Of a stretch of 64,000 nucleotides of DNA, positions 26,208 through 48,728 are shown one piece after another (the first letter of the stretch is position 1; each line of letters starts with the position of its first letter). The notes under the pieces are model-generated. The model had not been told where the DNA came from. It did not search any database and saw only the letters and a program-made list of their open reading frames with translations. The position numbers and the translations under genes were made by a program. The stretch is from contig CAVXJH010000005.1 in the NCBI GenBank assembly GCA_963762115.1, forward strand, positions 64,001 through 128,000, read 5' to 3'. Source of the stretch: Candidatus Babeliales bacterium (GTDB lineage Bacteria; Babelota; Babeliae; Babelales; JANWKD01).

Positions 26208-26266
26208 CACACATTCAATACGTTAAAACGCCTAAAATCAAAAGCATTGAGCCTAACAAAAAATCT

Positions 26267-26459
26267 TAAAAACCAAAAATGTCATTCCGAGGCACATTGT
26301 GCCGTGGGAACCCAGATTATGATGTTCTATTAAATAAAATCCCTAAAATCAAAAACTTATTGGATCAACAAATACAACTTAATTGGGAGGAATATATAGA
26401 ATTTTATATGCTGGGTTCCCACGGCACAATGTGCCTCGGAATGACATTTTTGGTTTTTA
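26267..26459. repeat. REPIN-like element: perfect 49-bp inverted repeat around a 95-bp AT-rich spacer
   Basis: 26267-26315 is the exact reverse complement of 26411-26459; core AATGTCATTCCGAG...CCCAG. Confidence 0.9.
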
Positions 26460-26507
26460 CGGTATTTTTCTAGATCAATGGTTCTTTATACTAAAATACT
26501 TTTGCCT

Positions 26508-26590
26508 AATAAACATCCCCGCAGCAAGCTGCGGAGTATTTTTCTAGGAAACGAAGTAAGCTTCGGGGAATTAACCCGCAAGTGATTAAA
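26508..26590. mobile_element. Short double-hairpin element resembling IS200/IS605-type ends (non-autonomous remnant)
   Basis: ccgcagcaagctgcgg and cgaagtaagcttcg hairpins followed by ggggaattaacccg...gattaaa. Confidence 0.45.
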
Positions 26591-31825: not shown

Positions 31826-31922
31826 AAAGTCCCCTTTGTTTTAAATATTAAAAATAGAATGATAATATATGATTAATTTTATAGTAAATATACTATTTGT
31901 CAATATTAGACAGGGGGAATTT

Positions 31923-33242
31923 CTAGAAATTTTCCTGTTGCTGATTATCAATCAAAACCTGACCAGGTTTATATTGATGCACGAGATTATTAGGATAACT
32001 GCTTTTATACCCATAATAAATACCCCAAATGCCAAACCCCATACTTAAAGCAACCACTAACCTATGCGTATTTTTATACTCATAAGCAATACATGCGCAT
32101 GCAAGGTCACTTAAAGGATATTCTGAATGCAAAAATTTTTCTCTCATAATATCTATACAAACACCTAAGGACGATCCAAAAACACAAGCCCCCAAACCAA
32201 TACCCAAAAACCTAGACCCATTTAATAATGTATTCCCATCGAAGAATGTCTTTATTCGATGCCGATTCTTCTCTAAAAAACTTGGCATTACAGCAGATAA
32301 AGCAATATTGATTGCCTGACCGGAAAGAGGATTATTGCGTAAATCAACAAGGCCATTTTCGCCAACTTTAAAATGCGGCAACTCTTTTATTTTATTATCA
32401 TTCAAAAGCACAACAGCACCATCAGGTAGCCTTCTTGGCAAAAATAGTTTTTTTCCATGATTGCCGCTCATATGAATTTCATTCACCCCAGGAAAAGTGC
32501 TAAACAAATGCGTAACATCAAGAATTTTTAAATTATTCTTATCAAAAGAAATGCCCTTAATCGTTGCACGCCCATATTCTTCTGCTACCAATTCAATGCC
32601 TTTTAGTGTATCAAGATCTTGACCCTCAATAAAAAGAACACAAGAATCATTATCATCTAAATCAGTTCCTAAGCGATGTATTTTTAAAGCGCCTTCATGG
32701 CGCAAACTACGTAGTGAATTCAAAAACCATCCGGATTTTACGTATTCAGGTTGCTCATGAGAAAGTAAAACTCTTTGTGCTTGATAGGTTAATTTTCGCA
32801 TAACATTTTTTGGAGCACCCAAAAAATCAGTCGCATCAAAAACACGAACTAATGCTTCTTTTGTGTCAATTTTTTTTATTTCTTTGAGATCTGCAATACA
32901 ACTAAAAACTGCTTTTAACGTATCAGCACTCAGATCAAGCGGTTCAAGTTCATCATCTGCACCAACATCATGAAAAATACCGTCATAATTCCCAAATGGT
33001 GGAGTGAAATCTACTATGTGCCCATCAAATGAACATTCCTTTTCACCTGCAGGAGCTGCATCTTCGTGAGCATCACCAAAACAATTGCGAATTGTGCTTG
33101 CTTGCATTGCAACATACCGAGGAACGCCTATCACATTTCCATCAGTACAACGAATTGCAATTGTTGACTTTGGCTTTTCCATTGCATGAGAAAAAAATAC
33201 ACTCAACATACAAACAAAAAATAATTGCTTTTTTAAAAACAT
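31923..33242 (-). CDS. Exported Skp1/BTB-like + LRR protein, paralog 2
   Basis: Same architecture; SHA|MEK; ATG at 33242. Confidence 0.75.
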   Translation of the reverse strand: MFLKKQLFFVCMLSVFFSHAMEKPKSTIAIRCTDGNVIGVPRYVAMQASTIRNCFGDAHEDAAPAGEKECSFDGHIVDFTPPFGNYDGIFHDVGADDELEPLDLSADTLKAVFSCIADLKEIKKIDTKEALVRVFDATDFLGAPKNVMRKLTYQAQRVLLSHEQPEYVKSGWFLNSLRSLRHEGALKIHRLGTDLDDNDSCVLFIEGQDLDTLKGIELVAEEYGRATIKGISFDKNNLKILDVTHLFSTFPGVNEIHMSGNHGKKLFLPRRLPDGAVVLLNDNKIKELPHFKVGENGLVDLRNNPLSGQAINIALSAVMPSFLEKNRHRIKTFFDGNTLLNGSRFLGIGLGACVFGSSLGVCIDIMREKFLHSEYPLSDLACACIAYEYKNTHRLVVALSMGFGIWGIYYGYKSSYPNNLVHQYKPGQVLIDNQQQENF

Positions 33243-33274
33243 ACTCAAAACCCAATCACTATAATAAAAAAATT

Positions 33275-34588
33275 TTAATTAGTTGCTTCTTTTTCGCCAT
33301 CTTCATCTTGATCAACAACAGCCTGACCAGACCTGAATTGATACTGCATATTATGATTCAGGGCTTGTGGAAAAACATGCCCAATATAAAACGCCACCGT
33401 TGTAGTAAGAGGCCAAGAAAATAATACTGCTACAAACAAAGGATTTCTACAATGGTCATACAACATGGGTAGAAGTGGTTCAGAGCGAAAAATTTTAAAT
33501 GCACCAAGGGGAAGGCCAACAAATATTCCTGAATAAATTACAAAACCTGCTCCCGTACGCAACATTACATAAGGATCAACGAGTGTTTTAAACACGGGAC
33601 GATGTTTTTGAAAAATAGTAGGCTTCTTAATGATTACATCAGGATTAATTTTTAGCTTATTATGCTTAAGACTTACCACGGCTTGCTCAGGAATAAAAAA
33701 AGTTTCTTCATCAAGACAATTATGATTTAATCGCACACTCACAAAATGCGGCAATGAGGATGGCCAAATTACTTTAGTTGTACCATTATTATTTGCCTTA
33801 ATTTTTTGCAACCCAGGCCAACAAGCAAATAATAATCTAATATTCAGCGTTTTAAGATTATTATCGCTAAGATTTAAACGTGTCACTGAGGGACATGCTA
33901 GAGCAACCTCTTCAATACCTGCCAATGTATCAATTTGACGTGATTGCAACGGTAAAGAATTGATTATTTTCGCACAATGAATCGAACTTGCTAGACGATT
34001 GCTTTTAAACAATTGTTTTATGGTAGTGAAATAATGCCCTTCATCTAACATTGCATAAAGCGGATTTTCGCTGTTATCTCTAAATTCTTTTTTAGAAATG
34101 AGAGAAGATGCACGTTGCGACAATTGCTGCATTATATTTTCTGAAACGCCCAAACAATGTGCCACTTCAAAAACATACATCACGTCTTCTTTATCAAGTT
34201 GTTCTATATTTTTTTCATCGGCGATACAATCAAAAAGTATCTTTAATGTTGCGGTGTTAAGATCAAGAGCTTCCACTTCTTCACGAGTACTAAAAACCCG
34301 ATTGAAAACATGTTGAGTGAAATCTACGGTGCGCACATCAAATGAACATTCTTTTTCTCCTGCAGGGGCTGCATCTTCATGAGCATCATCAAAATAATTC
34401 CGAATTGTGCTTGCTTGCATTGCAACATCTTGAGTAACGCCAAATATTCTTCCATCAGTGCCGCGAATAGCAATTGTTTGCATTGGTTTCTGCACTTCTT
34501 GTTGTTCCATACCATATACAACACATTGCGCCATTAAAAGTATGTATAAAAAAATATATCGATTACGTATTATAGAACCAACTTTCAT
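33275..34588 (-). CDS. Exported Skp1/BTB-like + LRR protein, paralog 3
   Basis: Same architecture; VYG|MEQ; LNLSDNNL. Confidence 0.75.
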   Translation of the reverse strand: MKVGSIIRNRYIFLYILLMAQCVVYGMEQQEVQKPMQTIAIRGTDGRIFGVTQDVAMQASTIRNYFDDAHEDAAPAGEKECSFDVRTVDFTQHVFNRVFSTREEVEALDLNTATLKILFDCIADEKNIEQLDKEDVMYVFEVAHCLGVSENIMQQLSQRASSLISKKEFRDNSENPLYAMLDEGHYFTTIKQLFKSNRLASSIHCAKIINSLPLQSRQIDTLAGIEEVALACPSVTRLNLSDNNLKTLNIRLLFACWPGLQKIKANNNGTTKVIWPSSLPHFVSVRLNHNCLDEETFFIPEQAVVSLKHNKLKINPDVIIKKPTIFQKHRPVFKTLVDPYVMLRTGAGFVIYSGIFVGLPLGAFKIFRSEPLLPMLYDHCRNPLFVAVLFSWPLTTTVAFYIGHVFPQALNHNMQYQFRSGQAVVDQDEDGEKEATN

Positions 34589-34599
34589 AAGTATTAAGA

Positions 34600-35787
34600 T
34601 TATTCTGGTATACCTTCTTGATCATCGGTCAAAATCTGACCTGGCTGAAAAATATCTTCTTCTGACCGATCAAAAATGCATCCTGCTCCAAGCGTCAAAA
34701 AAGTACCAACAACAGATTCAAATAAAAAAAGTTTTTGAAAAAATGCATCATCAATAAAGCCTTTATCTAAATAACGGAGTACAAGGACTGCCTCAGCATG
34801 TGCTGGAAAAGTGGCTAAAAAAAGCGGCTCCGCCAACATTCTTTTACAAGGTTGTGTATAAGGTCTATAACGTTCCAACAATGTTGGTTGCACTGCATAC
34901 TGACAAACTTGCAATGATTGCTCAGAAAACTTTCTGTATATATATTTCCATCCTCTCCGCAAATCAACAATCCCTTTTTCACCAATTTTAAACCTCGGCA
35001 GTTCTTGGATAGGATTGCAAATAAGATCAAGTCGAAAATTATCCGGCAATCTGTTGGGCATAATAAGACGTTCAATACGATTATTAGAGGCAATAAGCAC
35101 TTGCAAATTTGGCAATAATTCCAATAACTGCATAACATTAAGCACTTTTATTCTATTTGCTACTAAACTGAGAGAAATAATATTCTTATTGTTAAGATGC
35201 TGCTTTGCTATTGCATCAATCCCTATCAATGAATCAATTTTTTGTTTTTCAATTTTGAGTCTGTGTTCAGATTGATCTAATTCAATTTTTAAACAATTCT
35301 TACCGTGTAAATATCGTATTGAACGCACATAATAATCATTTTGTACCAATTCAGGCTGTTCATCAAATAGTACTAATTCCTGAATATAACAACTTAATAA
35401 ACGCATGAATTTTTTAGAAGCACCGAGAACCTCCCCTGCATCAAATACAGAAATTAATGATTTATTTTCAAGATTTTTTATTTTCTTTTTTGAATCTACA
35501 CAGGCAAATAATGCTGACAAGATATTACTGCCTAAATCAGTGTATTCAGCTCCATCATCACTTTCCATAAGCTCGACTACAACGTTAGCTTCATCAGATT
35601 GTTGAGATACATCAAAATATTCATGAAATCTACTTAACTTTGTCTCCACACCATTCGGAACTTCTACCATTTTTCCATCAGAACATTGAATTGCGATAGT
35701 CTTTTGTGGCATTTCTTCCATACCATGCATACACAAAAAAATTATAAAAAAGCTACAACAAAAAAGGCCATGTTTTATGTATGACAT
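34600..35787 (-). CDS. Exported Skp1/BTB-like + LRR protein, paralog 4
   Basis: TIAIQCSDGKMVEV; LSLVANRI, LIASNNRI; weaker C-terminal hydrophobic segments. Confidence 0.75.
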   Translation of the reverse strand: MSYIKHGLFCCSFFIIFLCMHGMEEMPQKTIAIQCSDGKMVEVPNGVETKLSRFHEYFDVSQQSDEANVVVELMESDDGAEYTDLGSNILSALFACVDSKKKIKNLENKSLISVFDAGEVLGASKKFMRLLSCYIQELVLFDEQPELVQNDYYVRSIRYLHGKNCLKIELDQSEHRLKIEKQKIDSLIGIDAIAKQHLNNKNIISLSLVANRIKVLNVMQLLELLPNLQVLIASNNRIERLIMPNRLPDNFRLDLICNPIQELPRFKIGEKGIVDLRRGWKYIYRKFSEQSLQVCQYAVQPTLLERYRPYTQPCKRMLAEPLFLATFPAHAEAVLVLRYLDKGFIDDAFFQKLFLFESVVGTFLTLGAGCIFDRSEEDIFQPGQILTDDQEGIPE

Positions 35788-35901
35788 AAAAAAACTCGCT
35801 CATTAAAAGTTTATACAATAAAAATAATGCAAGACAATATGTATATTTTATATACTATATTTCTTATTGCAAACTATTGATTGCTTTAAAAATATCTTTA
35901 G

Positions 35902-36250
35902 TAAGGTATTTTGCTTCTCCAAAATACCTTAACTAAAAGGAGCCCAATGTTCCCTTGGATTCCCTTCCCGCGCGAATATGCACCACTCCATTATTGATGC
36001 CTTCAGCATCAAAATTCCAGGTACATGTCGCACTACCGGACTAACTTATTTATAAATTTTTTATTGCGTGACATCTATAAATATTCCCTGGGAGCTCAAC
36101 CGTTGAAGGATCTGCAGCATATCATTTTAGATATGCGAGGATCGGCCTTTTGGGCGACGGGGAGATCAATAAGAGGCACAGCCTCTTATTTGCCCTTGTA
36201 TCAAAGGTATTGGGCAAACAATACTTTTGTGCCTGGCCCGCATAGGGCCG
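35902..36250. repeat. Back-to-back pair of multi-hairpin non-coding units (locus A); candidate structured RNA or ssDNA element
   Basis: 35902-36085 aligns with 46768-46920 and with the reverse complement of 47011-47118/48589+; 36192-36250 matches 48620-48676. Confidence 0.8.
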
Positions 36251-36311
36251 TTTAATAAAAGTTATTTTACTTTTATAATATTATTTTATGCCTAACCGGC
36301 ATAAGACCATT

Positions 36312-37469
36312 TTATTTTTTTGGCAAAGCCATTAAAATTAAAGCACCAAAAATACTCAGAAGAGCACCATAGAAAAATCCACAAAATGGTGAACAAAAGA
36401 CCCACAAACAACCAACAGCAGTACTCGAAAAAAAATCTCCAATGCCAGCAACGGCACCTAATAATCCATAACCAGTTCCACGATTGTTTGGCGATAAAAA
36501 ATCAGCTGCCAGCGCACTTTCCAATGAATCGGTGATTGCAGCAGAAATGCCCATTAAAGAAAATAAAAGGCCCAAATACCACACACTACTTATTTCGAAC
36601 ATGAGTCCCAATGAAACACAAGCAAATAAAAAATAACCAATCACAAGCATTATTTTTTTACCAATCTTATCAGCAAGGAATCCTAACGGGAATGAACATA
36701 AAGAACAAAAAATAGTATAAAAAGTGTATAAAAAAATTGCTAAACTATTTGCTAACACCGTTCCGCTCATGGGCGTTAAGAGTTGCATCGTACGAAATAC
36801 TAATAATGATGGTGCAAAATTACCAAGACCAAAAATGCCAACGGCAAACATAAAAAGAAAAAAATCTTTTGGCAATTGATGTATATTTTCTAAAATCAAT
36901 GTTTTTTTTGGATCACATGGTATATCGCTAACAAAAAAAACGATAACAACAAGAGCAAGAACACTCAGCAAGCATGCTGTTAAAAACACCAATGAAAAAG
37001 TATAACGAACAATAAGGTAACTGGCACATAAAGGTCCTGCAATTGCACCAAACATGGTGATCGCACGATAAAAACCAAATACAGCTCCGTATGCAAATGG
37101 TTTTGTGGAACTTGCTAGTAAGGCATCACGAGCAGGACCACGTATGCCTCTGCCAAACCATGCAAAAATCAACTGATACCAATTAAAAAAAAAGATAAAT
37201 GACCCTAAGCCAAGGGCAGTAAAAAAATAGCCAACGGTAAGAAATATTTTTCGCTTACCCGTATAATCGCTTAACCAACCAGCAAAAATTTTAATAAAAC
37301 TAATCAATGAATCAATTATGCCTTCAATTAAACCTAATAACGCTGCTGAAGCACCTAACGATGCTAAAAATGCCGGAAATATTGCCAATGCCATAAAATG
37401 ACCAAATTCTGAAAAAAAACTGGCGAGCGCAAGCATAAGAGTATTTTTATTTAACCATGATTTATCCAT
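36312..37469 (-). CDS. MFS transporter
   Basis: GWLSD..GKRK and G.LADKIG.K loop motifs; ~12 TM. Confidence 0.88.
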   Translation of the reverse strand: MDKSWLNKNTLMLALASFFSEFGHFMALAIFPAFLASLGASAALLGLIEGIIDSLISFIKIFAGWLSDYTGKRKIFLTVGYFFTALGLGSFIFFFNWYQLIFAWFGRGIRGPARDALLASSTKPFAYGAVFGFYRAITMFGAIAGPLCASYLIVRYTFSLVFLTACLLSVLALVVIVFFVSDIPCDPKKTLILENIHQLPKDFFLFMFAVGIFGLGNFAPSLLVFRTMQLLTPMSGTVLANSLAIFLYTFYTIFCSLCSFPLGFLADKIGKKIMLVIGYFLFACVSLGLMFEISSVWYLGLLFSLMGISAAITDSLESALAADFLSPNNRGTGYGLLGAVAGIGDFFSSTAVGCLWVFCSPFCGFFYGALLSIFGALILMALPKK

Positions 37470-37608
37470 TCCATTCCCCCTTATTATTGTTACTTTTTTT
37501 TAAGCTTACCTCATGTAAAAACCAACAAAATAGATTTTTGTAGTATTTTGGAAAAAAAAGTTAGTATCGTAATCAATAATGCACAGATAACAAAAGGGTG
37601 ATCCGCAC

Positions 37609-38451
37609 ATGTCAAAATTCTTACTTGTTTTAACGCTATTTTTCTCATGCACTACTACAAAGACTATGGAAGAAGATGAAATAACCAGCGAACATAAAGA
37701 AACAATAGTTGAACATGAACTATTAGCGACCCGCATGGCTAACTTTGTTGAGAATATTTATAATCTGCGCGACACGATCGTGGCAAGACCCTTGCGCGTG
37801 GAAGATTTTATTTATGCACAGAACAATGCTGAATGGAGCGACCTGCGAGAGCTCAACAAAAAAGTGAAAAAAAGATGCTCATGCAAAATGCCAAAATTAC
37901 TCAGAAAATATCAAGAACAAACAAAAGTACAAATCGACTTATTCAAACGAGGCGTTTCATTATTAGATAATGAAGAATTCAGAACCACCATACAAGACAA
38001 AATTACAAAAAAACCAGTGCAAACTTTTTTCATTGAAAAAGTTTGTCGACAAAAAAAAATGACTCCAACCAAATGGTTAGGATTACGAACAATTGCTTTA
38101 AGTAGCCTACGAGAAAAACTCAAAGAAAAAACCACAAAAGAACAAATCTTCAGTTGTGTTGATCAAGCACCGCCCTATGTTAGCGGTTTGGGATGCGGCG
38201 TTGGCCTCATGGCACTTTTCACCCCTTTATGGCCTTATGGCGCCACTATTATTGGCGTTAGTTCTTGTATTTGTTTGACATGCCAACATGAGATATACGA
38301 TACTTGCAAGTCTCATTCTCTCTATTGCAGCAATCATGATATTGATAATAAATTGCAAAGAACCATACAGCTCTTACAATTTAATGAAGAAAAAATACAG
38401 CCCAATACATCAGGTAAAAACATCGAAAAAGAACACTTGCTACAAAATTAA
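37609..38451 (+). CDS. Hypothetical exported protein with late hydrophobic hairpin (SP-ME class)
   Basis: TTKT|MEEDE; GLGCGVGLMALFTPLWPYGATIIGV segment. Confidence 0.65.
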   Translation: MSKFLLVLTLFFSCTTTKTMEEDEITSEHKETIVEHELLATRMANFVENIYNLRDTIVARPLRVEDFIYAQNNAEWSDLRELNKKVKKRCSCKMPKLLRKYQEQTKVQIDLFKRGVSLLDNEEFRTTIQDKITKKPVQTFFIEKVCRQKKMTPTKWLGLRTIALSSLREKLKEKTTKEQIFSCVDQAPPYVSGLGCGVGLMALFTPLWPYGATIIGVSSCICLTCQHEIYDTCKSHSLYCSNHDIDNKLQRTIQLLQFNEEKIQPNTSGKNIEKEHLLQN

Positions 38452-38572
38452 GGTAAACCAAGAGCGTTTAGCTTCAAATAAAGAAACATTAATAACATTT
38501 TGATTTTGATATTTTTGATTTTTAACGTAAATGCTTATCGCTTAAAATGTTTTTTTACTCATCGAATCCAAA

Positions 38573-39169
38573 TTACTCTATCAAAAACCCTTCAATTGGC
38601 CATGCATTTGAAAAATCCAAATGAGTATCAATCAATGGTTGGTGATGAACAAGAAAACGAATAGCTTGAATTTTAATACCACTTTCGCGGATTGACTTCA
38701 TCAATCCTTCAATCCACATTATTTTTTCAAAAGTAGATTGTTGCTTGCTAAAAGGATTACGATCAAATGAACAAAAGACTTCTTGCTTGGTTGCTGAAAT
38801 AGCAATTGATTGCAAAGAAATCTTTTTTATATTTATTTTTTCTTCATCAAGAATGGTTAACCAACTCGTAATAAGAGATGAGAGCGCATGAACCTTTTCA
38901 TCTGACCATAAAATTTCAGCAATTTCTTGTCGCCATGCATCATGATGCCAAAAAAAATGTTTTATGCTTTTTTTTTGCGTCATGACGCGCTCAATGGTAC
39001 GCTTTTCATAACAAGAATAAAAAGGATTCTTAAAAATAATCCACTGATGATTATAAGCAAAATAGAATACTGAACAAAAGATTGTCAGAAGTGATGCGAA
39101 TATAAGTAGAGAATTACCACGAAACATAACGACTCTTGCGAATATCTTCAATAATTGTCGAAAGAGCAT
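38573..39169 (-). CDS. Membrane-anchored protein, possibly GerMN-like; true start probably near 39127
   Basis: N-terminal TM; follows the amidase; C-terminal IQAIRFLV..QP. Confidence 0.5.
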   Translation of the reverse strand: MLFRQLLKIFARVVMFRGNSLLIFASLLTIFCSVFYFAYNHQWIIFKNPFYSCYEKRTIERVMTQKKSIKHFFWHHDAWRQEIAEILWSDEKVHALSSLITSWLTILDEEKINIKKISLQSIAISATKQEVFCSFDRNPFSKQQSTFEKIMWIEGLMKSIRESGIKIQAIRFLVHHQPLIDTHLDFSNAWPIEGFLIE

Positions 39170-39971
39170 GCGCTAAAGGTTGTACATACGCAACCCAATC
39201 ATCTTTTGTTTTTAAACTTGCCTCTATACAAAATGCCGGTGCAATAATACCCACTAATGATTTATGCGGAATGCCCAATAACCCCTTGCAATCAAATTGC
39301 TGTACGTACGGCATATTTTCAAATACTTGCACCATCAAATTTCCCCATGTTTTTGTAATACTAAGATTTTTCCTATGTGCCTGATCATAGGGAATGAAAA
39401 CAAATTCATCACTCTGTTGCTTCCAGCCATCAGTAAGAGCATTGTTCAAATAATGATAGAGAAAAAGATGTGGCTTAGCTTCTGTCTCTTTATAAAAATG
39501 AATAGTTATATAAAAATCAACACTCAAACGATTTGCAAAATTTGCATTCTGTAAAGGCTCTAACGATTCTCCAGGAAAACGCGTGAGAATGACACGAATA
39601 TCTGCATGTTCTTTTTCAAGTTTTTTTTGTAATGCTTCTGCACACTTTAAGGTCAAACCACGTTCATAGACATCATCAATTTCACGTAATGCATGGTTAA
39701 CATCACCAGCAGGATCTATCATAAGGGTGATTGGTTGAGCAAATACTAAATTGTTTGCTAGAAATAACATAAAGAATAAACAAGAATGTCTTCCCGAGGA
39801 GCGAAGCAACGTGGGGATCCAGAACTTTAATAAGTTCCCTATTAACGGAACTAATTTTATTATCTGGGTTGCCACGCTCACGCTCGCAATGACATTTTGA
39901 GGTAGTTTATTTATGGTACAATTTTGAATCAAGTTAAATAAGACATCTTGAGAAAAAAAAATTAACGACAT
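39114..39971 (-). CDS. N-acetylmuramoyl-L-alanine amidase (Amidase_3)-like; start uncertain
   Basis: LMIDPAG, E..LTL..A..L, VILTR, AN...DFYITIH, PAFCIE; the His expected in IDPGH is not evident. Confidence 0.7.
   Translation of the reverse strand: MSLIFFSQDVLFNLIQNCTINKLPQNVIASVSVATQIIKLVPLIGNLLKFWIPTLLRSSGRHSCLFFMLFLANNLVFAQPITLMIDPAGDVNHALREIDDVYERGLTLKCAEALQKKLEKEHADIRVILTRFPGESLEPLQNANFANRLSVDFYITIHFYKETEAKPHLFLYHYLNNALTDGWKQQSDEFVFIPYDQAHRKNLSITKTWGNLMVQVFENMPYVQQFDCKGLLGIPHKSLVGIIAPAFCIEASLKTKDDWVAYVQPLAHALSTIIEDIRKSRYVSW
39785..39896. repeat. REPIN-like element, copy 2 (inside the amidase ORF 5' region)
   Basis: aatgtcttcccgag...ggatccag-spacer-ctgggttgcc...gcaatgacatt. Confidence 0.8.
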
Positions 39972-42148
39972 GTAAGATCGCTCGTTAAAAACTGTTGCAA
40001 TAATGTTTTACGAACAATTGCTTTGTTATTCTTAACAGCCATAGCAATTGCTTTTGTTTGTCCTATTAAAATACACAATTTTTTAGCCCGCGTCAGCGCA
40101 GTATATAATAAATTACGCTGCAACAACATAAAATGTTGCATAAAAATTGGAATAATAATTGCTTGATATTCAGAGCCCTGACTTTTGTGAATAGAAAGCG
40201 CATAAGCAAGCACCAATTCATTTAATTCATCATACTCATACAACACCTTACGCTCAAAATAGGAAACAGTCATTGTTTTATCTTCTAGATGAATCTCTTC
40301 TATAGTGCCCGTATCACCGTTGAATACTAATTTATCATAATTGTTGCGAATCTGCATGACACGATCACCAAGCTTGAATAAAGCACCGTGATAAGTCAAT
40401 TGCACCGATGCATCGGCATTAAGAAACTGTTGCAAATGTTGATTCAAAATTTGCGTTCCGACAACACCACGATTCATAGGCACTAATATCGTTGCATCGT
40501 CAGGAGCAATGCCATACGTTGGCAATGTTGTTGTATACAACGATTTAATGTGCTTCAAAACATTATCTGGATCTTCTTCTTTGATAAAAATAAAATCTTT
40601 TCGTGAATCGGCTAAAAAGGAAGTGGGAAATTCTCCCTTATTAACGCGGTGAGCATTCACCACAATCAAACTATTTTGTGCTTGGCGAAAGATATGCGTC
40701 AATTCTATAGTGGGAATACAACCACTGGCAATGAGATCTCGTAAAAAATTGCCAGCACCAACAGAGGGCAATTGATCAATATCACCAATGAAAATAAGAT
40801 GGGTCCTTAAAGAGACTGCTTTGAGAAGCGCATGAGCCAAAAAGATATCAATCATTGATGCTTCATCAACAATCAAAAAATCTACTTTTAAGGCATTGCC
40901 TTCATTATGCACAAATTGCATAGTACTTACATCAAATTCCAACAAACGATGTAGGGTAACGGCATGCCGATTCGTGCTCTCAAGCATGCGCTTAGCTGCT
41001 CTGCCAGTTGGCGCAGCAAGCTGGTAAGAAAGTTTATTTTCTTCTAATAATGACAATAAATTTTTTATAACCGTTGTTTTTCCCGTGCCAGGGCCACCAG
41101 TAATGATGGCAACTTTTTCTTGCAAGCAAGTCATGATACCTTGTTGTTGATGTTCGTGTAATTCAACACCATTATTTACGTTGCCAATTCTTAATTTTTT
41201 ATAAATCTCTTCAAAATCAAAAGTATGCTGTTTGGGATGAGCAAGCAAATCTTTAATTTTTTTTGCAACCGCTTTTTCAACGCCATAATGTGCAGCCAAT
41301 GATAACCAATGCTCATCGTTAAGAGTAACCAATTTAATTTTTTCAGCTGCATGCAGTTCATGCAATGCCGCTCTAATAGTGACTTCATGTTCAGTATAAT
41401 CAAGTTCTAGAAGTTCAATGACCTTGACTTTAAGATCATTCAGTTCTGCATAAAGGTGACCTTGACTTGCGATATCGGTTAAGAAAAAAAGCATGCCAGC
41501 TTTTATACGCTTGAGCGAATGCTTTTCAAAGCCAAGATTTTGTGCAATCTTATCGGCCGTTTTAAAGCCTATACCCCAAATTTCTTCAGCCAATCGATAG
41601 GGATTTTCTTGTAACAAAGCGAGCGATTCATGACCCCATTTCTTATAAATTTTCACGGCATAAGCAGTTGAAACACCTTTCTCTTGCAAAAAAACCATGA
41701 CTGAAGCTATTTGCTTTTGATCTTGCCATGCAGTAATAATTTGTTCGCGACGCTTTTGACCAATACCGGCGACTTCTTGTAATCGTTGTGGCTGCTGATC
41801 AATAACTTCTAATACCGTCACACCAAAATGATTCACTAATTTTTCGGCATATACAGGACCAATGCCCTTAATTAAGCCTGAGCCAAGATATTTTTTAAGC
41901 CCAACTATCGTTTCAGGAACTTTTGCCGTACAGCTTTTTGCTTCAAATTGTCGACCAAATTTTGCATGACTAACCCAGGCGCCTTGCAAAGAAACATGCT
42001 CACCTGGGTTTATTGCGCTCAAATACCCTTTTACTATTGCCGTGGTATTACTTTTTAATTGCAATACAAATACAGAAAAGCCGTTGTCAGCGCTTTTGAA
42101 AAGTAATCGCTCAACAACTCCCTGTAATTCTTCTTGAAAGGGTTCCAT
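39962..42148 (-). CDS. recD2: ATP-dependent RecD-like helicase RecD2
   Basis: YLGSGLIKGIG HhH, TGGPGTGKT, VDEASM, GDIDQLPSVG, HKSQGSE. Confidence 0.93.
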   Translation of the reverse strand: MEPFQEELQGVVERLLFKSADNGFSVFVLQLKSNTTAIVKGYLSAINPGEHVSLQGAWVSHAKFGRQFEAKSCTAKVPETIVGLKKYLGSGLIKGIGPVYAEKLVNHFGVTVLEVIDQQPQRLQEVAGIGQKRREQIITAWQDQKQIASVMVFLQEKGVSTAYAVKIYKKWGHESLALLQENPYRLAEEIWGIGFKTADKIAQNLGFEKHSLKRIKAGMLFFLTDIASQGHLYAELNDLKVKVIELLELDYTEHEVTIRAALHELHAAEKIKLVTLNDEHWLSLAAHYGVEKAVAKKIKDLLAHPKQHTFDFEEIYKKLRIGNVNNGVELHEHQQQGIMTCLQEKVAIITGGPGTGKTTVIKNLLSLLEENKLSYQLAAPTGRAAKRMLESTNRHAVTLHRLLEFDVSTMQFVHNEGNALKVDFLIVDEASMIDIFLAHALLKAVSLRTHLIFIGDIDQLPSVGAGNFLRDLIASGCIPTIELTHIFRQAQNSLIVVNAHRVNKGEFPTSFLADSRKDFIFIKEEDPDNVLKHIKSLYTTTLPTYGIAPDDATILVPMNRGVVGTQILNQHLQQFLNADASVQLTYHGALFKLGDRVMQIRNNYDKLVFNGDTGTIEEIHLEDKTMTVSYFERKVLYEYDELNELVLAYALSIHKSQGSEYQAIIIPIFMQHFMLLQRNLLYTALTRAKKLCILIGQTKAIAMAVKNNKAIVRKTLLQQFLTSDLTCR

Positions 42149-42232
42149 ATAATGCTCATATTTTTTTCAATTAATCTAACTCACTTTGATCACACCGACA
42201 TTTCATTTAAAGCAAATTAGATACACTACAAC

Positions 42233-42365
42233 GTCATTATGAGGAAATTTACTTAAGTAAATTTCCGTAGTAATCCAGAACTAATTATATTTCCTAATTT
42301 ATTTTAGGAATAATTTTTTATAGACTGGATTCCTACGCCATGCTGCGCAAGGCTCAGAATGACAT
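42233..42365. repeat. REPIN-like element, copy 3
   Basis: gtcattatgagg...taatccag-spacer-ctggattcctacg...ctcagaatgac. Confidence 0.75.
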
Positions 42366-42433
42366 GTATATCTTTTAATGCTTTTGCTTTGCATAAAGTT
42401 ATTTACTTTACAAATTAATGTACATTCATTTAA

Positions 42434-43396
42434 TCATTTTTTTGGTTTTGATAATTCAAGAAATTGCTGCCAACCTCTAGGACAACTATCAATAACATCT
42501 TTTAAAAAATGAGTAAGATCGGTTGAAAATTCATCTAAAACTTTACAACTTGTCATCGTCTTATTAAAGATAACAAATTCCTGGCCATCTGCAATAGTTG
42601 ACCACTGCAATAAAAAGCTTTTTGGCCGATTTCTTTTTTGACAAAATTCTTCAACTAATTTAAAAAGAAACTTTTTTGCACCGGTCATTTTTTTACTAAA
42701 CGGTTGTAATATTTTTAAAACATCTTCTTTAACGATGATAAACACTGGCGCAAGATCTTCTCGATAGATCGCATGTTCTTTTTGCAGACTCGTATATGCT
42801 TCTTCATACCCCTCGATATCTTGAATATAAGCACGCTTCAACATTTCTTCCTGCTCTACTACCGCATTTTGATAGCTTTCATACAAAGCTTCTTCCATTG
42901 AAATTTGCTCTCGAACAACATGTTCATCTTCCAAAGTACGCTCAACAACCTCTTGTCGTTCACAACACTCTTCTTCAAATTTTTTTTCTAATACCGCCAA
43001 AGCTTCGGCAAGCTCCTCTTGATACTGCTCATATGCCATTTTATCTATATAGCGACATTCAAGTTCGTATTTTTTTGCATAATATGCTGCATCGTTCATT
43101 CGCTCATATTCAGCCAATGTATGCAAGGTATACCGCTTTCCTTGAAAAACATATTTTCCTTCATAGATGTTTTTTTCAGGATTTAACATACCAAACTGAA
43201 CCTTTTTAATGCCATGCCTAATACGCATCATATCCCAAATAGTTGCGCCATCAAGCGCAAATGGTATGCCATCAAGCAATTTTAAAACAGCGTTGGTAAG
43301 CGGTGGTGGCCCCAAGATGACAGCGGCAAAAATAACAGCCGATGAAAAATACAAGACTAAATATGCCAAACCTTTTTTTCTTGAACAAACTTTCAT
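42434..43396 (-). CDS. Hypothetical protein with N-terminal hydrophobic segment and acidic coiled coil
   Basis: aggagga RBS; long ORF. Confidence 0.7.
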   Translation of the reverse strand: MKVCSRKKGLAYLVLYFSSAVIFAAVILGPPPLTNAVLKLLDGIPFALDGATIWDMMRIRHGIKKVQFGMLNPEKNIYEGKYVFQGKRYTLHTLAEYERMNDAAYYAKKYELECRYIDKMAYEQYQEELAEALAVLEKKFEEECCERQEVVERTLEDEHVVREQISMEEALYESYQNAVVEQEEMLKRAYIQDIEGYEEAYTSLQKEHAIYREDLAPVFIIVKEDVLKILQPFSKKMTGAKKFLFKLVEEFCQKRNRPKSFLLQWSTIADGQEFVIFNKTMTSCKVLDEFSTDLTHFLKDVIDSCPRGWQQFLELSKPKK

Positions 43397-43424
43397 ACTA
43401 ACTCCTCCTTTGCATTATTATTTT

Positions 43425-45029
43425 TTATACCTCTGCTGCAAAGCGTAGTGTTACGTTAAAATCTTTCCCAATACCACTACTCAGAAAGGTATAATCCCCA
43501 TATAACGTCAAACACCAATCAAATTTCTCCCCCCTTCCCTCATAATTAGTCGAAATAAAAATTTTATTCTGATAGGCACCAGGCTTCACGGCAATATCAG
43601 TTCTAATTTCAGCAACTTGCCATGGTGTTGCATAAATAGTCCCTAAGCGCTCTCTATCTTGCCACCACAAATCAAATCCTAATCCAAGCTTCCATCTTTT
43701 TCTTTTGCCCAAAACAGAATCTATACATGAGGTAAATTTAAAAATAAATCCTGGATAAATCATCGTCTGATATACTTTTGGTATTAAGGTATTGATTAAT
43801 TGTTGATTTAAAAATGCTAATTTAAACGGAGCATCTGCTGGATTAGCGGGTGGAACTTGAGATGTTGTATAAGGCTCCAATGCGTTAAATTCCTGACTAA
43901 ATTTTTTGGTGATATAAAACCGCGTATCAAGCGCAGGACATAAATACTCTAACGCGCTTCTGGTTGTCATGCTAAAACGATCATTAAATTGTAAAAATTT
44001 TTCTGCAAAAATCATAAGACCCAAATGGCCATTATTACCTAACGAAGTTTGTAATAAATTTGCCGATAGTTTGTCAAAAGCAGAAAGTAAAAAATTCACT
44101 GAAATTGCTTCAATTTGCATAGGATCATTCACTTCACAGAAAACCAACTGAAATAATTCTAAAATATTGAATATTGGATGATTAGAATTTTTTTTGAAAT
44201 GAGAACCAAGCAGCCCCTTTTTAAAAGAGATCTGTGTTGGAATTGTTGCTTCAACGCCAACATTAAGCTGCAAGCTCTCATGCTCAACGACAAAATAACC
44301 AAGAGTCAACCGCGTATCGCCAAAGCCAATTCGATCACTAATAAAATGTTTTTGTTGCTCTGGATCACTTGGACCAAAAAATGCTTCTAAGAGTTTTTGT
44401 TCTTCAGGAGTCACAAAAAAATTGCGCTCAAGATAATATAATGGCGTTTTGAATTCTAGATTAAAACGACCATTTGCATGCGCAACACCAAACATAAATC
44501 CCCCCCGTCGCTCTTGCATCTTCAAAAGGCCAAATAATTCAATCGCCGTTGGAATATTAATACCCAAATCAAGCTGATCAATATTTTGTATAAAATTAGC
44601 ATTTTCAAGGTCCCAATAAGAAGTAATATTTATTCCTTCATCAGTAAAATTTGCTCGTGTTGTTTCATTATAAAAAAACCAACTATTAATTTGCCAGCGT
44701 TGAGGCAAACAATATTCATGAATTAAAAATTGAGGCATATCAAGCAGGGATCTTTGATTAACATTATAAGTATGTAAATATAAATTCTGCTGTAATTTAC
44801 TTTGCGCATCAATAGTTGCCGGATCTGCAATAAAATCTAAAACACCTTGTGCATCAATACAAGCAGTCGCTCGTAATCCTTCATGATCTTCCAGCATAGT
44901 TGCATAATTATCAAGCTCATCAACTATATATTCATCATAAGCTTCATCTATTGAATATACCGAGGCACAAGCAAAAAAAACAACAAAAACACACCCTACT
45001 ATTCTCTTTTTCATATAAACTGCTTTCAT
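43425..45029 (-). CDS. Putative outer-membrane beta-barrel protein
   Basis: Signal peptide; amphipathic aromatic strands; G.GDT.L.LG and LGNNGHLG motifs. Confidence 0.55.
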   Translation of the reverse strand: MKAVYMKKRIVGCVFVVFFACASVYSIDEAYDEYIVDELDNYATMLEDHEGLRATACIDAQGVLDFIADPATIDAQSKLQQNLYLHTYNVNQRSLLDMPQFLIHEYCLPQRWQINSWFFYNETTRANFTDEGINITSYWDLENANFIQNIDQLDLGINIPTAIELFGLLKMQERRGGFMFGVAHANGRFNLEFKTPLYYLERNFFVTPEEQKLLEAFFGPSDPEQQKHFISDRIGFGDTRLTLGYFVVEHESLQLNVGVEATIPTQISFKKGLLGSHFKKNSNHPIFNILELFQLVFCEVNDPMQIEAISVNFLLSAFDKLSANLLQTSLGNNGHLGLMIFAEKFLQFNDRFSMTTRSALEYLCPALDTRFYITKKFSQEFNALEPYTTSQVPPANPADAPFKLAFLNQQLINTLIPKVYQTMIYPGFIFKFTSCIDSVLGKRKRWKLGLGFDLWWQDRERLGTIYATPWQVAEIRTDIAVKPGAYQNKIFISTNYEGRGEKFDWCLTLYGDYTFLSSGIGKDFNVTLRFAAEV

Positions 45030-45224
45030 TCTACAAAGGGATTATTTTTTACCAGATAAGATTAGGCTTATCTTAACTAATTTTTGAGATCATGACAAAA
45101 ACGATACTAACAAATCAGTCAAAAAACTATCATTGAAATTATCCTTTTTACCATGCTATAGTTGTGCTACTGTCAACAGAGCAATGTAATAAAAAAAATA
45201 ATCTTCTCTTAACAAGAAACAGGA

Positions 45225-46625
45225 ATGATTATGATCAAAAAGATACCATTTTTCTCACTCTTTATTCTCCTTTTTTTAGGCACAATCTATACCCAACGAC
45301 ACACAAACAAATCATTAATCCCGCAAGTTAAAAAAACCACTTTTTTCAAAGCTCAAAATCTTAAAGATCAACGCCTCTTTAAAAAAATAATGAGTGATGT
45401 AGGAAAAAAATATAAAAATGATAAAAAAGCATATTATACTTTTATAACAAAAAAAAATGATGATGGCATGACGCCGCTCATGATTGCTTCAGTAACCTTT
45501 GACACAGAACAAGTTATTTTCTTACTTGATGAAATAGCAAAATATTATGGCAATAAAAAAACAAGCGAAGACAAAAAACAAATTTTTAATTATCTCGATT
45601 CACGTGGTCCAGAAGGTAATTCTGCATTTTTTTTCGCAACACAAAATGGTGATTATAAAACTATTAAGGCAATGATTAAACGCGTGCCAAAAATGTTAGA
45701 TGATAAACAATTATTTCTTAAATTTTTGACGGCAACGACCTATTCAGATAAATGGACTCCCTTACATTGGTTGGTTTACGACGGTGCAACCCAGACATTA
45801 GAATATCTAGTCACTTCAGCTGAAAAAATTCTTGGAAAACATTCACCAGAATTTGATGCATTCATAAATCCAATAAACGAAGATGGCGGAACACCGCTTA
45901 ATTATGCACTCAAAGGCAATAATAGAAAATTCCTTTTAGAACAAGGCGCAAACACTATTCATCCATTCAATCAAGATATTCAAGATGCACGTGCATTGTC
46001 GACACAATTCTTAGAAGCTCTTCATGATGCTGCATTTGGCAAAATGCAAAAAATCATGTATCAAGCTCAAGAAAAATTTCAATCAAATCCAAATCTATTT
46101 TACGAATTCATCACCGCAAAAGATGATGCTGGATGGGACCTTTTAATGCATGCCGTCACCCAAGGACGTTATGAATATGTCGCTTTCATACTCTATGCGA
46201 CAGAAAAATATTTTCATAATAAATCACAATATATTTATGATGTATTAAGCAGTGTTGCAATAGATGGCAATAGCCCTTTACTGCTTGCAATATTACGCAG
46301 AAATTTTGAAATCGCTAAACTGCTTATCGAAAAAATAAAAAAATATTCAAAAAATAAATATTTTTTTTACATGATCATGAATACAACAAATTATCCAAAG
46401 GGATTAACACCACTCTTTGCAACGGTTTTCTTTGGATCTGATAAAGATGAATTTTATGATACAAGCAAATTAATATTAGAATCTATTGCAGAGCGATTCG
46501 GCAAAGTTTCCCATGTCATGGATCTTTTTGTCAATAAAAGAAACTTGGATGGGTTTACGGCACTTTCCTATGCTTCTTCGGATAAATTAAAAAAATTATT
46601 GCGAGAGTATGGTGGGCATGAATGA
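45225..46625 (+). CDS. Exported ankyrin-repeat protein
   Basis: GMTPLMIA, WTPLHW, GGTPLNYA, GNSPLLLA, GLTPLF, GFTALSYA. Confidence 0.88.
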   Translation: MIMIKKIPFFSLFILLFLGTIYTQRHTNKSLIPQVKKTTFFKAQNLKDQRLFKKIMSDVGKKYKNDKKAYYTFITKKNDDGMTPLMIASVTFDTEQVIFLLDEIAKYYGNKKTSEDKKQIFNYLDSRGPEGNSAFFFATQNGDYKTIKAMIKRVPKMLDDKQLFLKFLTATTYSDKWTPLHWLVYDGATQTLEYLVTSAEKILGKHSPEFDAFINPINEDGGTPLNYALKGNNRKFLLEQGANTIHPFNQDIQDARALSTQFLEALHDAAFGKMQKIMYQAQEKFQSNPNLFYEFITAKDDAGWDLLMHAVTQGRYEYVAFILYATEKYFHNKSQYIYDVLSSVAIDGNSPLLLAILRRNFEIAKLLIEKIKKYSKNKYFFYMIMNTTNYPKGLTPLFATVFFGSDKDEFYDTSKLILESIAERFGKVSHVMDLFVNKRNLDGFTALSYASSDKLKKLLREYGGHE

Positions 46626-47118
46626 GTTATATTAAGGTATTTTGCTTGCCAAAAATACCTTAAACAAAAGCATAATATTCTGTTTGATAATTTTAAGCTT
46701 TTCATATTTTTGTTTCTTATTTTAAATCAATTTTTCTTTTTTTATTTGGCCTCATGTCGGCCAGACACAAAGGTATTGTTTGCCCAATACCTTTGATACA
46801 AGGGCACCAACGTTCCGTTGGATCTCTCTCCCACGCTCACATGAACCACTCACTCATTGATGCCTTCAGCATCAACGATTTCAGATTCATGGCGCGCTAC
46901 CGGAGTTACATTTTAAATTTTCCGTTGAGCAAAACTGTTGAATGATTTGCAAAATTTTTGTGAAGATGCACCTATCTGTCAAAACCTCGTTCGAAGACTA
47001 AAGAACTTGAAATATTATAGATATTGCATGGTGAAATTTTTATAAATAAGTTAGTCCGGTAGCGCGTCGTGCACCCGAAAGAATGATGCGAAGCATCATG
47101 ATGTGTGGTGCATATACG

Positions 47119-48580
47119 CTACTCTTTACCCACATTTTTACTATAATTAACGAGATACAGAGTTAATATATCAAAAAAAGAAAAGTAAAAAATGATTAAA
47201 GAATTGTGGGCAGCAAATGAGACTAATCGTATGTCATTAAAAGATAAACGCAGAAATGAAAGAGTTAGAATACTTCTAGAGGCCGTTGCCGATAGCCCAT
47301 CAGCAAGCATTTTACAAGCTTGCAACGGAGAAAATGCACAAGCAAAAGGTGCTTATCGTTTTCTTGCCACAACAGAAATTGATGAACAAGATATTCTCGA
47401 AGGACATTATCAAGCAACCGTCGAAAGAGCTGAAAATGCTGATGGAAAAGTCATTATTGTTAGCGATGGCATGGATGCATCTTTTAAAAATCTTAAAAAA
47501 ACTTCAGGGTTAGGAACTCTATCTAATACAAAAAGTTCACTTGGAATAAAAGTTCAAAATACGTATGTATTTAGTGAAAATTTTATTCCATTAGGGCTAA
47601 TAAATCAAAAGTATTGGATACGCAATAAAGAAGATTTTGGCAAAAAAAAACATAAGCTAAGGTTGCCTACAAAGGAAAAAGAATCTTATAATTGGATTGA
47701 ATCAATTTATCAAATAGAAAAAAAGCTTCCTATAAATAAAAGCTATTTATTTATAGGTGATGGTGGTGCCGATATTTATGATTTATTAACAGCAGAAAGG
47801 CGTGTAAATAGCGATTTACTCATTCATCTTGTGCAAAATAGAAATATACAGAACGAAGAAGAGCGTCTCTTTGAATTGCTGGAAAAACAATCAGTATTAG
47901 GCGTTATAACGAAAGAATTAGAACGTACAAAAACTCATTCTAAGAGAACTGCAAAGTTAGCGATTAGAGTCAAAGAAGTCGAAATTTGTTCTCCTTTAAA
48001 TCGAAAAAATGAAAAATTACCAACCATACATTTAACAGCGATTTATGTGCAAGAAATAGAATATGACAACTCAGTAAATGATCCAATAGTATGGCGACTT
48101 ATTACTACGATTAAAGTTCAATCATTGGAAGAAGCTGAAAAGCTTATTGCCCTTTACTCAAAACGTTGGCTCATTGAACGCTATCATTATATTTTAAAAG
48201 AAGGTTGTCGCATAGAAAAATTTCAAATGGAATCGGTTGATAACCTAAAAAGAACCTTGGCTGTTTACTCAATTGCTGCCTGGCGTTTAATTTATATCAC
48301 TTATCTTGCAAGAATTAAACCTGATGCCCCATGTAATTTAATTCTTACAACCGATGAAGCTGATGCGTTATATTGCACGCATCATAAAACTCTTACATTG
48401 CCCCCCAAATCTTTTTCTGTTAAAGAAGCAACTCAAATGATAGCAAAATTAGGAGGTTTTCTTGGCAGGAAAAACGATAAAGATCCTGGTGCAAAAGTTT
48501 TGTGGCAGGGATTATTTCGGCTAGAAGCCATTACACAAGCTTATCTTTTATTTAAAGAACTAAATGTGGGTAAAGAGTAG
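47119..48580 (+). mobile_element. IS4-family (IS50/Tn5-like) insertion sequence
   Basis: Perfect 19-bp TIRs ctactctttacccacattt (47119-47137, 48562-48580); 8-bp target duplication catatacg (47111-47118, 48581-48588). Confidence 0.95.
47192..48580 (+). CDS. IS4-family transposase
   Basis: D.RRN.R, AYRFL, KES..W, Y..RW.IE.YH..LK.GC..E, LGGFLGRK.D..PG; stop codon lies in the right TIR. Confidence 0.95.
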   Translation: MIKELWAANETNRMSLKDKRRNERVRILLEAVADSPSASILQACNGENAQAKGAYRFLATTEIDEQDILEGHYQATVERAENADGKVIIVSDGMDASFKNLKKTSGLGTLSNTKSSLGIKVQNTYVFSENFIPLGLINQKYWIRNKEDFGKKKHKLRLPTKEKESYNWIESIYQIEKKLPINKSYLFIGDGGADIYDLLTAERRVNSDLLIHLVQNRNIQNEEERLFELLEKQSVLGVITKELERTKTHSKRTAKLAIRVKEVEICSPLNRKNEKLPTIHLTAIYVQEIEYDNSVNDPIVWRLITTIKVQSLEEAEKLIALYSKRWLIERYHYILKEGCRIEKFQMESVDNLKRTLAVYSIAAWRLIYITYLARIKPDAPCNLILTTDEADALYCTHHKTLTLPPKSFSVKEATQMIAKLGGFLGRKNDKDPGAKVLWQGLFRLEAITQAYLLFKELNVGKE

Positions 48581-48728
48581 CATATACGCGCGGAAGATTT
48601 GATCCAACAGAATGTTGGGGCCCTTGTATCCAATGTATTGGGCAAACAATACATTGGTGCTGCCCGCATAGGGCCGATAGATTTTATTTAAAAAAATTAT
48701 GAAAAAAATAAAAATTCAAAATAAGTAT

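Follow-up and report, generated by a model that had tools for sequence, protein, structure and literature searches.

Two intergenic sites in a 64,000-nucleotide stretch of a Candidatus Babeliales bacterium genome (contig CAVXJH010000005.1, positions 64,001-128,000; the whole stretch is called the window) each carry a back-to-back pair of folded units, and the question raised by this locus is what these units are and how they multiply. A preliminary description had placed units A1 and A2 at site A and B1 and B2 at site B. It took them for an unrecognised non-coding element, either a new RNA family or a large mobile repeat folding as single-stranded DNA (ssDNA), reminiscent of REP/RAYT (REP, repetitive extragenic palindromic) substrates. 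All four units were found where they had been placed, and the feature is real and strongly structured. We consider them to be copies of a dispersed non-coding repeat with a predicted 3' pseudoknot braced by a T·A-T triplex; the repeat is likely a non-autonomous mobile element that folds as ssDNA and is likely copied by an enzyme encoded elsewhere. We give this explanation a probability of roughly 55%. The observations behind it are a multi-copy, patchy spread, covariation in stems and knot, a match between a T-run and an A-run, divergent doublets, presence or absence at site A, and targeting by an IS4-family insertion sequence (IS).

Predicted pseudoknot and triple helix in the 3' module

The 3' module opens with stem A, which is followed by a strand of 4 nt, a single spacer base, a T-run, then stem B with its loop of 6 nt, and finally stem C. 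The 4-nt strand and the first four bases of the stem B loop pair with each other, and are predicted to form an H-type pseudoknot. The stretch 'GCCCTTGTATC' of the earlier consensus order does not have the role of a linker: GCCCTTGTATC pairs with the GGCAAA loop. Covariation was kept in a larger alignment of 92 modules, which had been fitted to the nested stems and not to the knot; 98.3% of cells of the 4-bp knot were paired and 4/4 pairs were changed on both sides. None of 500 shuffles matched the whole 3' module structure. When 155 distinct hits were parsed for the knot, 55 remained unparsed, and a full 4-bp partner was present in 91 of the 100 parsed. The knot types included TGCC:GGCA (49), CGCC:GGCG (9), TGTA:TACA (8), TGTC:GACA (8), CACC:GGTG (4), and TACC:GGTA (3). 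Conserved positions are few, and the knot bases vary freely provided that pairing is kept.

The length of the T-run equals that of the A-run opening the 3' arm of stem B in 72/91 hits (runs of 1 to 4) and never exceeds it; equality was also seen in 59/62 of an earlier hit set. Counted by distinct contexts, equality was seen in 32 of 47, against a mean of 9.8 and a maximum of 22 in 20,000 shuffles; as related copies are not independent, these counts are not probabilities. Such equality is expected of T·A-T (or U·A-U) triples in the major groove, and the T-run facing an A-run is the signature of a predicted T·A-T triple helix. In many modules (e.g. window 46796-46801, minus strand), a linker G after the T-run lies opposite a T interrupting the A-run, and is followed by a T opposite an A; DNA triplexes tolerate the triplet G·T-A.

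Two further pairings were tried and rejected for want of covariation: a closing pair that would join the GTAG foot to the 3' GTGC stretch, and a knot that would use the downstream TGCC. Many copies, though not all, allow a putative short helix in which the GAT preceding stem A pairs with the linker's end. The parts of the four units are as follows.

35902..36043, minus strand: unit A1, type 1, last hairpin (stem C) missing
36033-36040, minus strand: foot of A1, TCCGGTAG
35995-36011, minus strand: inner hairpin of the long hairpin of A1
35944-35958, minus strand: stem A of A1
35940-35943, minus strand: predicted pseudoknot strand of A1, 3/4 pairs with loop 35914-35919
35935-35938, minus strand: T-run of 4 in A1, facing an A-run of 4
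36049..36079, minus strand: promoter-like spacing at A1, common to a subfamily of copies in the genome; not called by the consensus scan
36086..36249, plus strand: unit A2, type 2, own long 5' hairpin, then stem A
36191-36194, plus strand: predicted pseudoknot strand TGCC of A2
36196-36197, plus strand: T-run of A2
36213-36218, plus strand: stem B loop of A2
36235-36249, plus strand: stem C of A2
46748..46904, minus strand: unit B1, complete and of type 1; foot at 46897-46904 and inner hairpin at 46858-46874
46807-46821, minus strand: stem A of B1; TGCC 46803-46806, T-run 46800-46801
46779-46784, minus strand: stem B loop of B1; stem C 46748-46762
47011..47119, plus strand: 5' half of unit B2, type 1; promoter-like spacing 47016-47046, foot 47055-47062
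47084-47098, plus strand: inner GAA hairpin of B2; the 5' half ends in the first target-duplication copy, 47110-47119
48580..48676, plus strand: 3' half of B2; second target copy 48580-48589, stem A 48604-48618
48619-48622, plus strand: predicted pseudoknot strand of B2, 3/4 pairs; T-run 48624-48625
48641-48646, plus strand: stem B loop of B2; stem C 48662-48674

Fold of the whole units

The compensatory changes quoted in the preliminary description (outer stem of A1/B2, middle stem of A1/B2/B1, GAA hairpin of B1/B2) read as written. Folding z-scores on the strand assigned to each unit were -4.4 to -6.6 (60 shuffles, parameters for RNA and for DNA). The opposite strands fold too (z -2.9 to -7.2), the assigned strand being lower in energy in 8/8 comparisons, and the G·T wobbles in the stems favour that same strand, as had been proposed. 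Over 17 type-1 units, the named structure had 86.9% of cells paired and 25/41 pairs changed on both sides; pairing as high was reached in 0/500 shuffles, and slid controls gave 34-42% paired. The consensus order given earlier describes type-1 units (A1, B1, B2), with A1 lacking its last hairpin. A2 carries a different 5' hairpin (type 2), which covaries among 5 copies (13/52 predicted pairs), and only the 3' module is common to both types. The GTAG foot stands beside the hairpin in type-1 units and is absent from type 2. No gathering-level Rfam match was obtained in the window, and the permissive matches at both loci were all far below the cut-off. The claim of a structured, covarying non-coding family is upheld by these results.

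Loop types and transcription signals

A model-free census of hairpin loops in 155 units was made. GNA accounted for 32/80 triloops (GAA 12, GCA 10, GTA 6, GGA 4), compared with 4 on the other strand; 8/11 G..A tetraloops were not GNRA, UNCG was absent, and GNYA tetraloops dominate alongside the GNA triloops. A wider bacterial form of the module (see below) gave GNA in 28/78, compared with 10 on the other strand, and again no UNCG. Among the controls, the rRNA of the window genome (G000) had 0/3 GNA and 3 UNCG, and a random genome 2/59 GNA. As DNA, mini-hairpins of the GNA and GNNA kinds have a much higher stability than as RNA (PMC13037366; this and the other sources cited here were available in part), and loop type has served for the same kind of argument, in the opposite direction, for the STAXI motif (PMC2864571).

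The promoter hint offered earlier stands in so far as the spacing is present in A1 and B2; the consensus scan does not call it and detected no conserved promoter, the spacing being confined to a subfamily in G000. It was not seen upstream of 12 feet from other genomes, read by eye (the upstream scan had drawn false feet too) and with no positive control. No terminator follows stem C. The GNA/GNYA loops, the absence of UNCG and the lack of a conserved promoter or terminator point to ssDNA, which we hold to be about twice as probable as RNA.

Spread, doublets and site polymorphism

With R2, a covariance model built on 40 sequences of the 3' module with a hand-set structure, 19 modules were found in G000. 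In a set of 150 genomes of the phylum (>=90% completeness), matches occurred in 37, spanning 9 families with 1 to at least 27 modules per matching genome, and none in the other 113. BLAST with B1 gave matches in 24/261, and no plasmid match. The element pattern in GTDB fell under Babeliales or Dependentiae titles for 48/58 loci, under 'bacterium' for 6 and under 'uncultured Pseudomonadota' for 4; viral contigs held 0 loci of the Babeliales pattern. Near-identical copies lie far apart within one genome, and the element encodes no protein. The option of an ssDNA-folded mobile repeat is supported by this patchy multi-copy spread together with the GNA loops.

Five near-complete genomes yielded 77 modules (4 tandem partial hits of 81 being left out), namely 39 singles and 19 doublets within 1 kb, all divergent, with 201-733 bp between module starts; in an earlier locus set, 26/27 two-unit sites were divergent. 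The doublets carry the 3' module as imperfect inverted ends, like the terminal inverted repeats of MITEs (miniature transposable elements with inverted repeats). In two environmental runs, contigs of relatives span site A but lack the element, skipping ~410 bp. One skips 35901-36309 and leaves only a 19-nt stem-C hairpin; the other skips 413 bp and has 43 other letters instead. No target duplication was readable at the joints in these two contigs.

Several units hold other hairpin repeats inserted inside them. Such repeats occurred in 10/19 carrier spacers of G000 vs 40/474 other spacers (Fisher p 2e-6), and one type sharing carrier spacers flanks Ssn-like GIY-YIG genes in G000. Tandem 110-bp copies of the 3' end were found in L147 and L189, and a collapsed palindromic junction at G000 C6:147026-147091. 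In L147 (1061-1498), four of these copies are stacked downstream of the unit; tandem or partial 3'-end copies are also present in L035, L037, L169, and the window (46632-46669).

The GC skew of G000 switches at C3 ~243 kb, near dnaA, and at C6 ~180 kb. About half of G000 (C3 1-420 kb, C7 and the last part of C6) is free of element sites; five other genomes gave no clear rule of this kind. A non-coding stretch with short palindromes at window 26515-26590, possibly an IS-end remnant, recurs beside a unit in L002.

An insertion sequence that targets the repeat

The preliminary description had B2 in two parts and left the cause unnamed. The split is real, and is due to a 1460-bp IS4-family element flanked by a 10-bp target duplication (47110-47119 / 48580-48589).

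47120..48579, plus strand: IS4-family (IS50/Tn5-like) insertion sequence, 1460 bp, 18-bp terminal inverted repeats
47192..48580, plus strand: IS4 transposase, 462 aa (PF14706, PF02281, PF01609)

All 4 copies of this transposase in G000 sit at one same position of the repeat element. Because their duplications differ in length (10, 10, 12, and 12 bp) and one copy is oppositely oriented, they represent separate insertions. Of the 6 element copies that bear the target, 4 have the IS in it, and a single similar site lying outside the element has none; the occupancy shows the repeat serving as a landing site. ISRm22, also of the IS4 family, is described as targeting palindromic REPs (PMC1525189).

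A second case of repeat-targeted insertion in G000 is a 313-aa IS110, of which 4/5 copies share one insertion point within another hairpin repeat family. Its fifth copy interrupts a gene of a family that we take to be IS481-like (the sites are C3:514097, C5:37250, C6:169496, C6:303570, and C6:254014). The ends of the IS4, IS110, and IS200 elements of G000 are unlike those of the repeat element, and no joint across the IS4 or locus B was found in the sequencing runs, among whose listed holders there was no RNA run.

Search for a mobilising gene

G000 holds IS200 (5 copies), IS110 (5), the IS481-like family, IS4, and five small GIY-YIG genes. No recurring mobiliser was found among 503 clustered flanking open reading frames (ORFs), where only two IS families and one host gene recurred, nor among 130 of the 155 listed ORF pieces beside metagenome loci, nor among 28 of 80 cluster representatives beside viral loci. 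In G229, the 2-kb gap between two opposed modules holds two ordinary-looking ORFs with no recognised mobiliser (no Pfam scan).

The suggested REP/RAYT link was not supported, as the presence of Y1 transposases does not track the element (10/21 carrier vs 11/27 comparison genomes, 2 of the 27 later proving to be carriers) and no cognate RAYT gene is flanked by it. Around 41 Y1 or GIY-YIG loci, the module occurred in 2 and flanked both sides in 0. Small GIY-YIG genes were present in 20/24 carriers vs 12/20 non-carriers. Reverse transcriptase (RT) was absent from G000 and present in 3/45 genomes (3/25 carriers); TnpB, also absent from G000, was present in 5/45 (4/25 carriers). CsrA (PF02599) was found in 0/45, the control being positive in 3/14. 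Profiles for RRXRR and Y2_Tnp gave no match, and were uninformative since their controls were silent as well. None of the RAYT/HUH, RT, or nuclease genes tested, kinds that had been suggested for a search, showed a specific association with the element.

Two of the G000 GIY-YIG genes are flanked by a short inverted Ssn/SRM-type repeat, and none by the element studied here. At window 26253-26473, two copies of a short hairpin repeat stand in inverted orientation without an intervening gene; the same repeat flanks the small GIY-YIG genes at C3:532988 and C3:558439 (Ssn/SRM-type). A second kind of small GIY-YIG gene was noted at C5:10613, C5:148358, and C5:155858, each time directly behind hairpin repeats; in two cases these resemble the IS110-targeted family, and in one case a tRNA-like sequence is adjacent. 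This second kind is possibly the partner of the IS110-targeted repeat family.

Relation to known repeat systems

The word 'unrecognised' holds for the Babeliales lineage only; the 3' architecture and the divergent doublets match extended TwoAYGGAY of Pseudomonadota, whose core is RF01731. According to the available text of the preprint that describes it (10.64898/2026.09.22.753630), extended TwoAYGGAY has a long basal hairpin, further hairpins, a 3' pseudoknot, variable copy number, divergent doublets (68.4% in TwoAYGGAY) a few hundred bp apart, repeated 3' flanks, other palindromic repeats nearby, and no known mobiliser, as does the present family. That text treats the elements as RNAs and leaves the mechanism of mobility open; no mention of a triple helix or an ssDNA reading was found in it. 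Unlike TwoAYGGAY, the Babeliales family has no AYGGAY loops, two alternative 5' hairpin types, no CsrA in the searched hosts, and no 5-6-nt upstream array that we noticed. RF01731 had no match in the window, nor in G000 at E<=1 (14 controls were silent; the model was positive on L238 and 7 other loci). The family fails TwoAYGGAY membership.

The same 3' topology was found, by a short pattern, after an Rfam-positive TwoAYGGAY (52.8 bits) in locus L238, and 7/20 hand-picked loci of this wider module pass the TwoAYGGAY Rfam cut-off. In metagenomes (80 loci, 71 distinct modules), a knot of at least 4 bp was present in 40 of the distinct modules (shuffle mean 7.6, maximum 16), with AYGGAY within 150 nt upstream in only 21. 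Where the purine tracts are mixed, the linker mirrors the pyrimidine tract of the stem in 33 viral-contig loci (24 distinct contexts), as in L230 with eight matching triples by eye; a direct-repeat pattern was seen in 0. A mirror rather than a direct repeat supports a parallel triplex over strand swapping. R2 gave 7 matches at E<0.01 among 83 wider-module loci, with 0 in those that were Rfam-positive for TwoAYGGAY; the likeness seen is one of architecture, and common descent is a possibility. In the related phage contigs L367-L398, the wider module returns at intervals of ~570-610 bp among paralogous ORFs that lack a Pfam match, where it could be a recombination site between variable cassettes.

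With REP/REPIN/BIME-RAYT systems (PMC3733652), the family shares GTAG at the hairpin foot, inverted doublets, intergenic position, and targeting by IS. REPs are 20-40-nt palindromes, whereas the Babeliales units have 145-165 nt and a predicted tertiary fold, are not found flanking a RAYT gene, and are untied to the presence of Y1. In the system of Ssn GIY-YIG nucleases with SRM/NTS repeats (PMC11893778) there is likewise a hairpin repeat, one that a small protein would read in ssDNA form. G000 contains SRM-like repeats and Ssn-like genes, often in the element's own spacers, but these genes have a short repeat of their own on their flanks. BoxC/TM of E. coli (PMC4666352) is a dispersed intergenic repeat able to form an intrastrand triplex; the BoxC triplex is of class II, purine-motif and rich in G/C, and has no pseudoknot, whereas the order here, third strand - pyrimidine - purine, is that of class IV, and a short pyrimidine-motif triplex is predicted to brace an H-type knot inside a multi-hairpin unit. 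The Babeliales element shows no sign of a template, RT or ribonucleoprotein, and its likeness to telomerase is one of fold only. In the telomerase-type H-pseudoknot with U·A-U triples, the first U's of loop 1 face the first A's of the 3' strand of stem 2, an arrangement that the predicted fold of the element shares.

No description of the Babeliales family, or of a triplex in these repeats, was found in the literature covered, which left out most subscription journals. The family is a lineage-specific variant of pseudoknot-ended divergent-doublet repeats, the only described branch found being extended TwoAYGGAY; it works like a non-autonomous mobile repeat and, by the tests run, is not TwoAYGGAY, REP-RAYT or Ssn-SRM. 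We tentatively propose, as a possibility that we hold to be doubtful, a pan-bacterial superfamily of selfish non-coding elements built on a selected ssDNA pseudoknot-triplex, which would be the recognition end of an unknown enzyme; TwoAYGGAY would be a branch with Csr-binding cargo, and the Babeliales family the bare chassis with interchangeable 5' hairpins.

Weighing the explanations

In the mobile ssDNA explanation, the fold would form on DNA made transiently single-stranded by replication or repair. A back-to-back pair would present one foldable unit per strand, with the knot and the last hairpin facing outward as element ends, and the long 5' hairpin would be exchangeable cargo. The knot-triplex would be recognised by an ssDNA nuclease or strand transferase acting in trans, for which a small GIY-YIG protein of Ssn type is the most likely candidate and HUH/Y1 a less likely one; this enzyme would seed copying into intergenic DNA, often into other hairpin repeats. 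Since no enzyme was found in any test, the enzyme here is one that we infer. Its absence is the first of several points that weigh against this explanation. G230 holds at least 27 modules and no small GIY-YIG gene, and the module was found in 0/30 GIY-YIG loci and in 0/6 such loci of G000. Neither a target duplication nor a sharp element end could be defined; each empty-site joint comes from a single contig of low depth, at 80% likeness, and may be a deletion. The singles of G000 show no clear lagging-strand bias by eye. As for the fold, 55/155 hits were unparsed, 9/100 parsed ones (A1 and B2 with 3/4 pairs included) are without a full 4-bp partner, and kinship of the copies makes the counts overstate independence. 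U·A-U triplex pseudoknots are best known from RNA, 46/99 pentaloops are G..A and mostly GNRNA, as are most pentaloops of stem C, which suits RNA too, and an SRM-type ssDNA-repeat control, too small to inform, had GNA in 1/9 triloops.

A rival possibility is that the units are transcribed structured RNAs, a CsrA-free sister of extended TwoAYGGAY, in which the knot-triplex protects the transcript end or binds a protein and which spread as passengers of MITE-like doublets. The shared topology in L238 and in the 7/20 loci, the one-sided G·T wobbles, the GNRNA pentaloops, the promoter-like spacing in A1 and B2, and the treatment of the relatives as RNAs in the available preprint text (10.64898/2026.09.22.753630) fit this account. 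We think it unlikely, as GNA triloops and GNYA tetraloops dominate in the absence of UNCG, no promoter or terminator is conserved, CsrA was found in 0/45 genomes (control 3/14), and 113/150 phylum genomes have no match. Host processes could also suffice without a dedicated enzyme, if the knot-triplex stalls DNA polymerase, and repair by template switching, gene conversion or slippage makes the inverted doublets, tandem 3' copies, and new sites. The failure of every search for a partner gene, the tandem copies in L147/L189, the collapsed junction in C6, and the link of intrastrand triplex motifs to polymerase arrest and instability (PMC4666352) agree with this; near-identical copies far apart in one genome do not, and a precise tertiary fold kept across families suggests a recognising factor, which makes host repair by itself improbable. 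Finally, the units might be the many remaining copies of a self-cleaving ribozyme or of an orphan, TnpB/IscB-like guide-RNA scaffold. This we regard as very improbable in view of the lack of any Rfam match, gathering or permissive, the rarity of TnpB (4/25) and RT (3/25) in carriers and their absence from G000, and the few invariant positions, with knot bases free to vary if paired. What speaks for it is that a compact pseudoknot with triples is typical of ribozymes and guide-RNA scaffolds. On balance, the structured non-coding family and the ssDNA-folded mobile repeat of the preliminary description are retained, and its REP/RAYT link is not.

Surroundings of the units

G000 has 1.53 Mb in 7 contigs and ~34% GC; its genes in the window include a TLC ATP/ADP translocase and an ankyrin protein, and this content, like the titles of the records matched by the element pattern, points to Babeliales (Dependentiae). 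Pair A has the start of an unannotated secreted-type gene on one side and the end of an MFS gene on the other; the gene ends bordering pair B are those of the ankyrin gene and of a gene for ribulose-phosphate epimerase. At window 30389-35787 lie four paralogous genes in tandem, of secreted type and, by eye, resembling leucine-rich-repeat genes; the one tested had no Pfam match. Two further pieces of the element were noted at site B.

46632..46669, minus strand: additional, incomplete copy of stem B and its T-run, on the downstream side of B1 (duplicated 3' end)
46920..46955, plus strand: decayed type-2 head in the B1/B2 spacer, by eye from comparison with A2 and L014

Significance

How small structured bacterial repeats multiply without a cognate transposase is an open question, also in the available text of the TwoAYGGAY preprint (10.64898/2026.09.22.753630). 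The Babeliales family separates the chassis (knot, triplex, and outward-facing doublet) from the AYGGAY cargo, in genomes of ~1-1.7 Mb without CsrA. This separation narrows the search for the mobiliser, and makes the question of DNA or RNA testable with 60-nt oligonucleotides. If the ssDNA explanation is true, a DNA pseudoknot-triplex under selection would be an unusual and rare natural tertiary structure of DNA.

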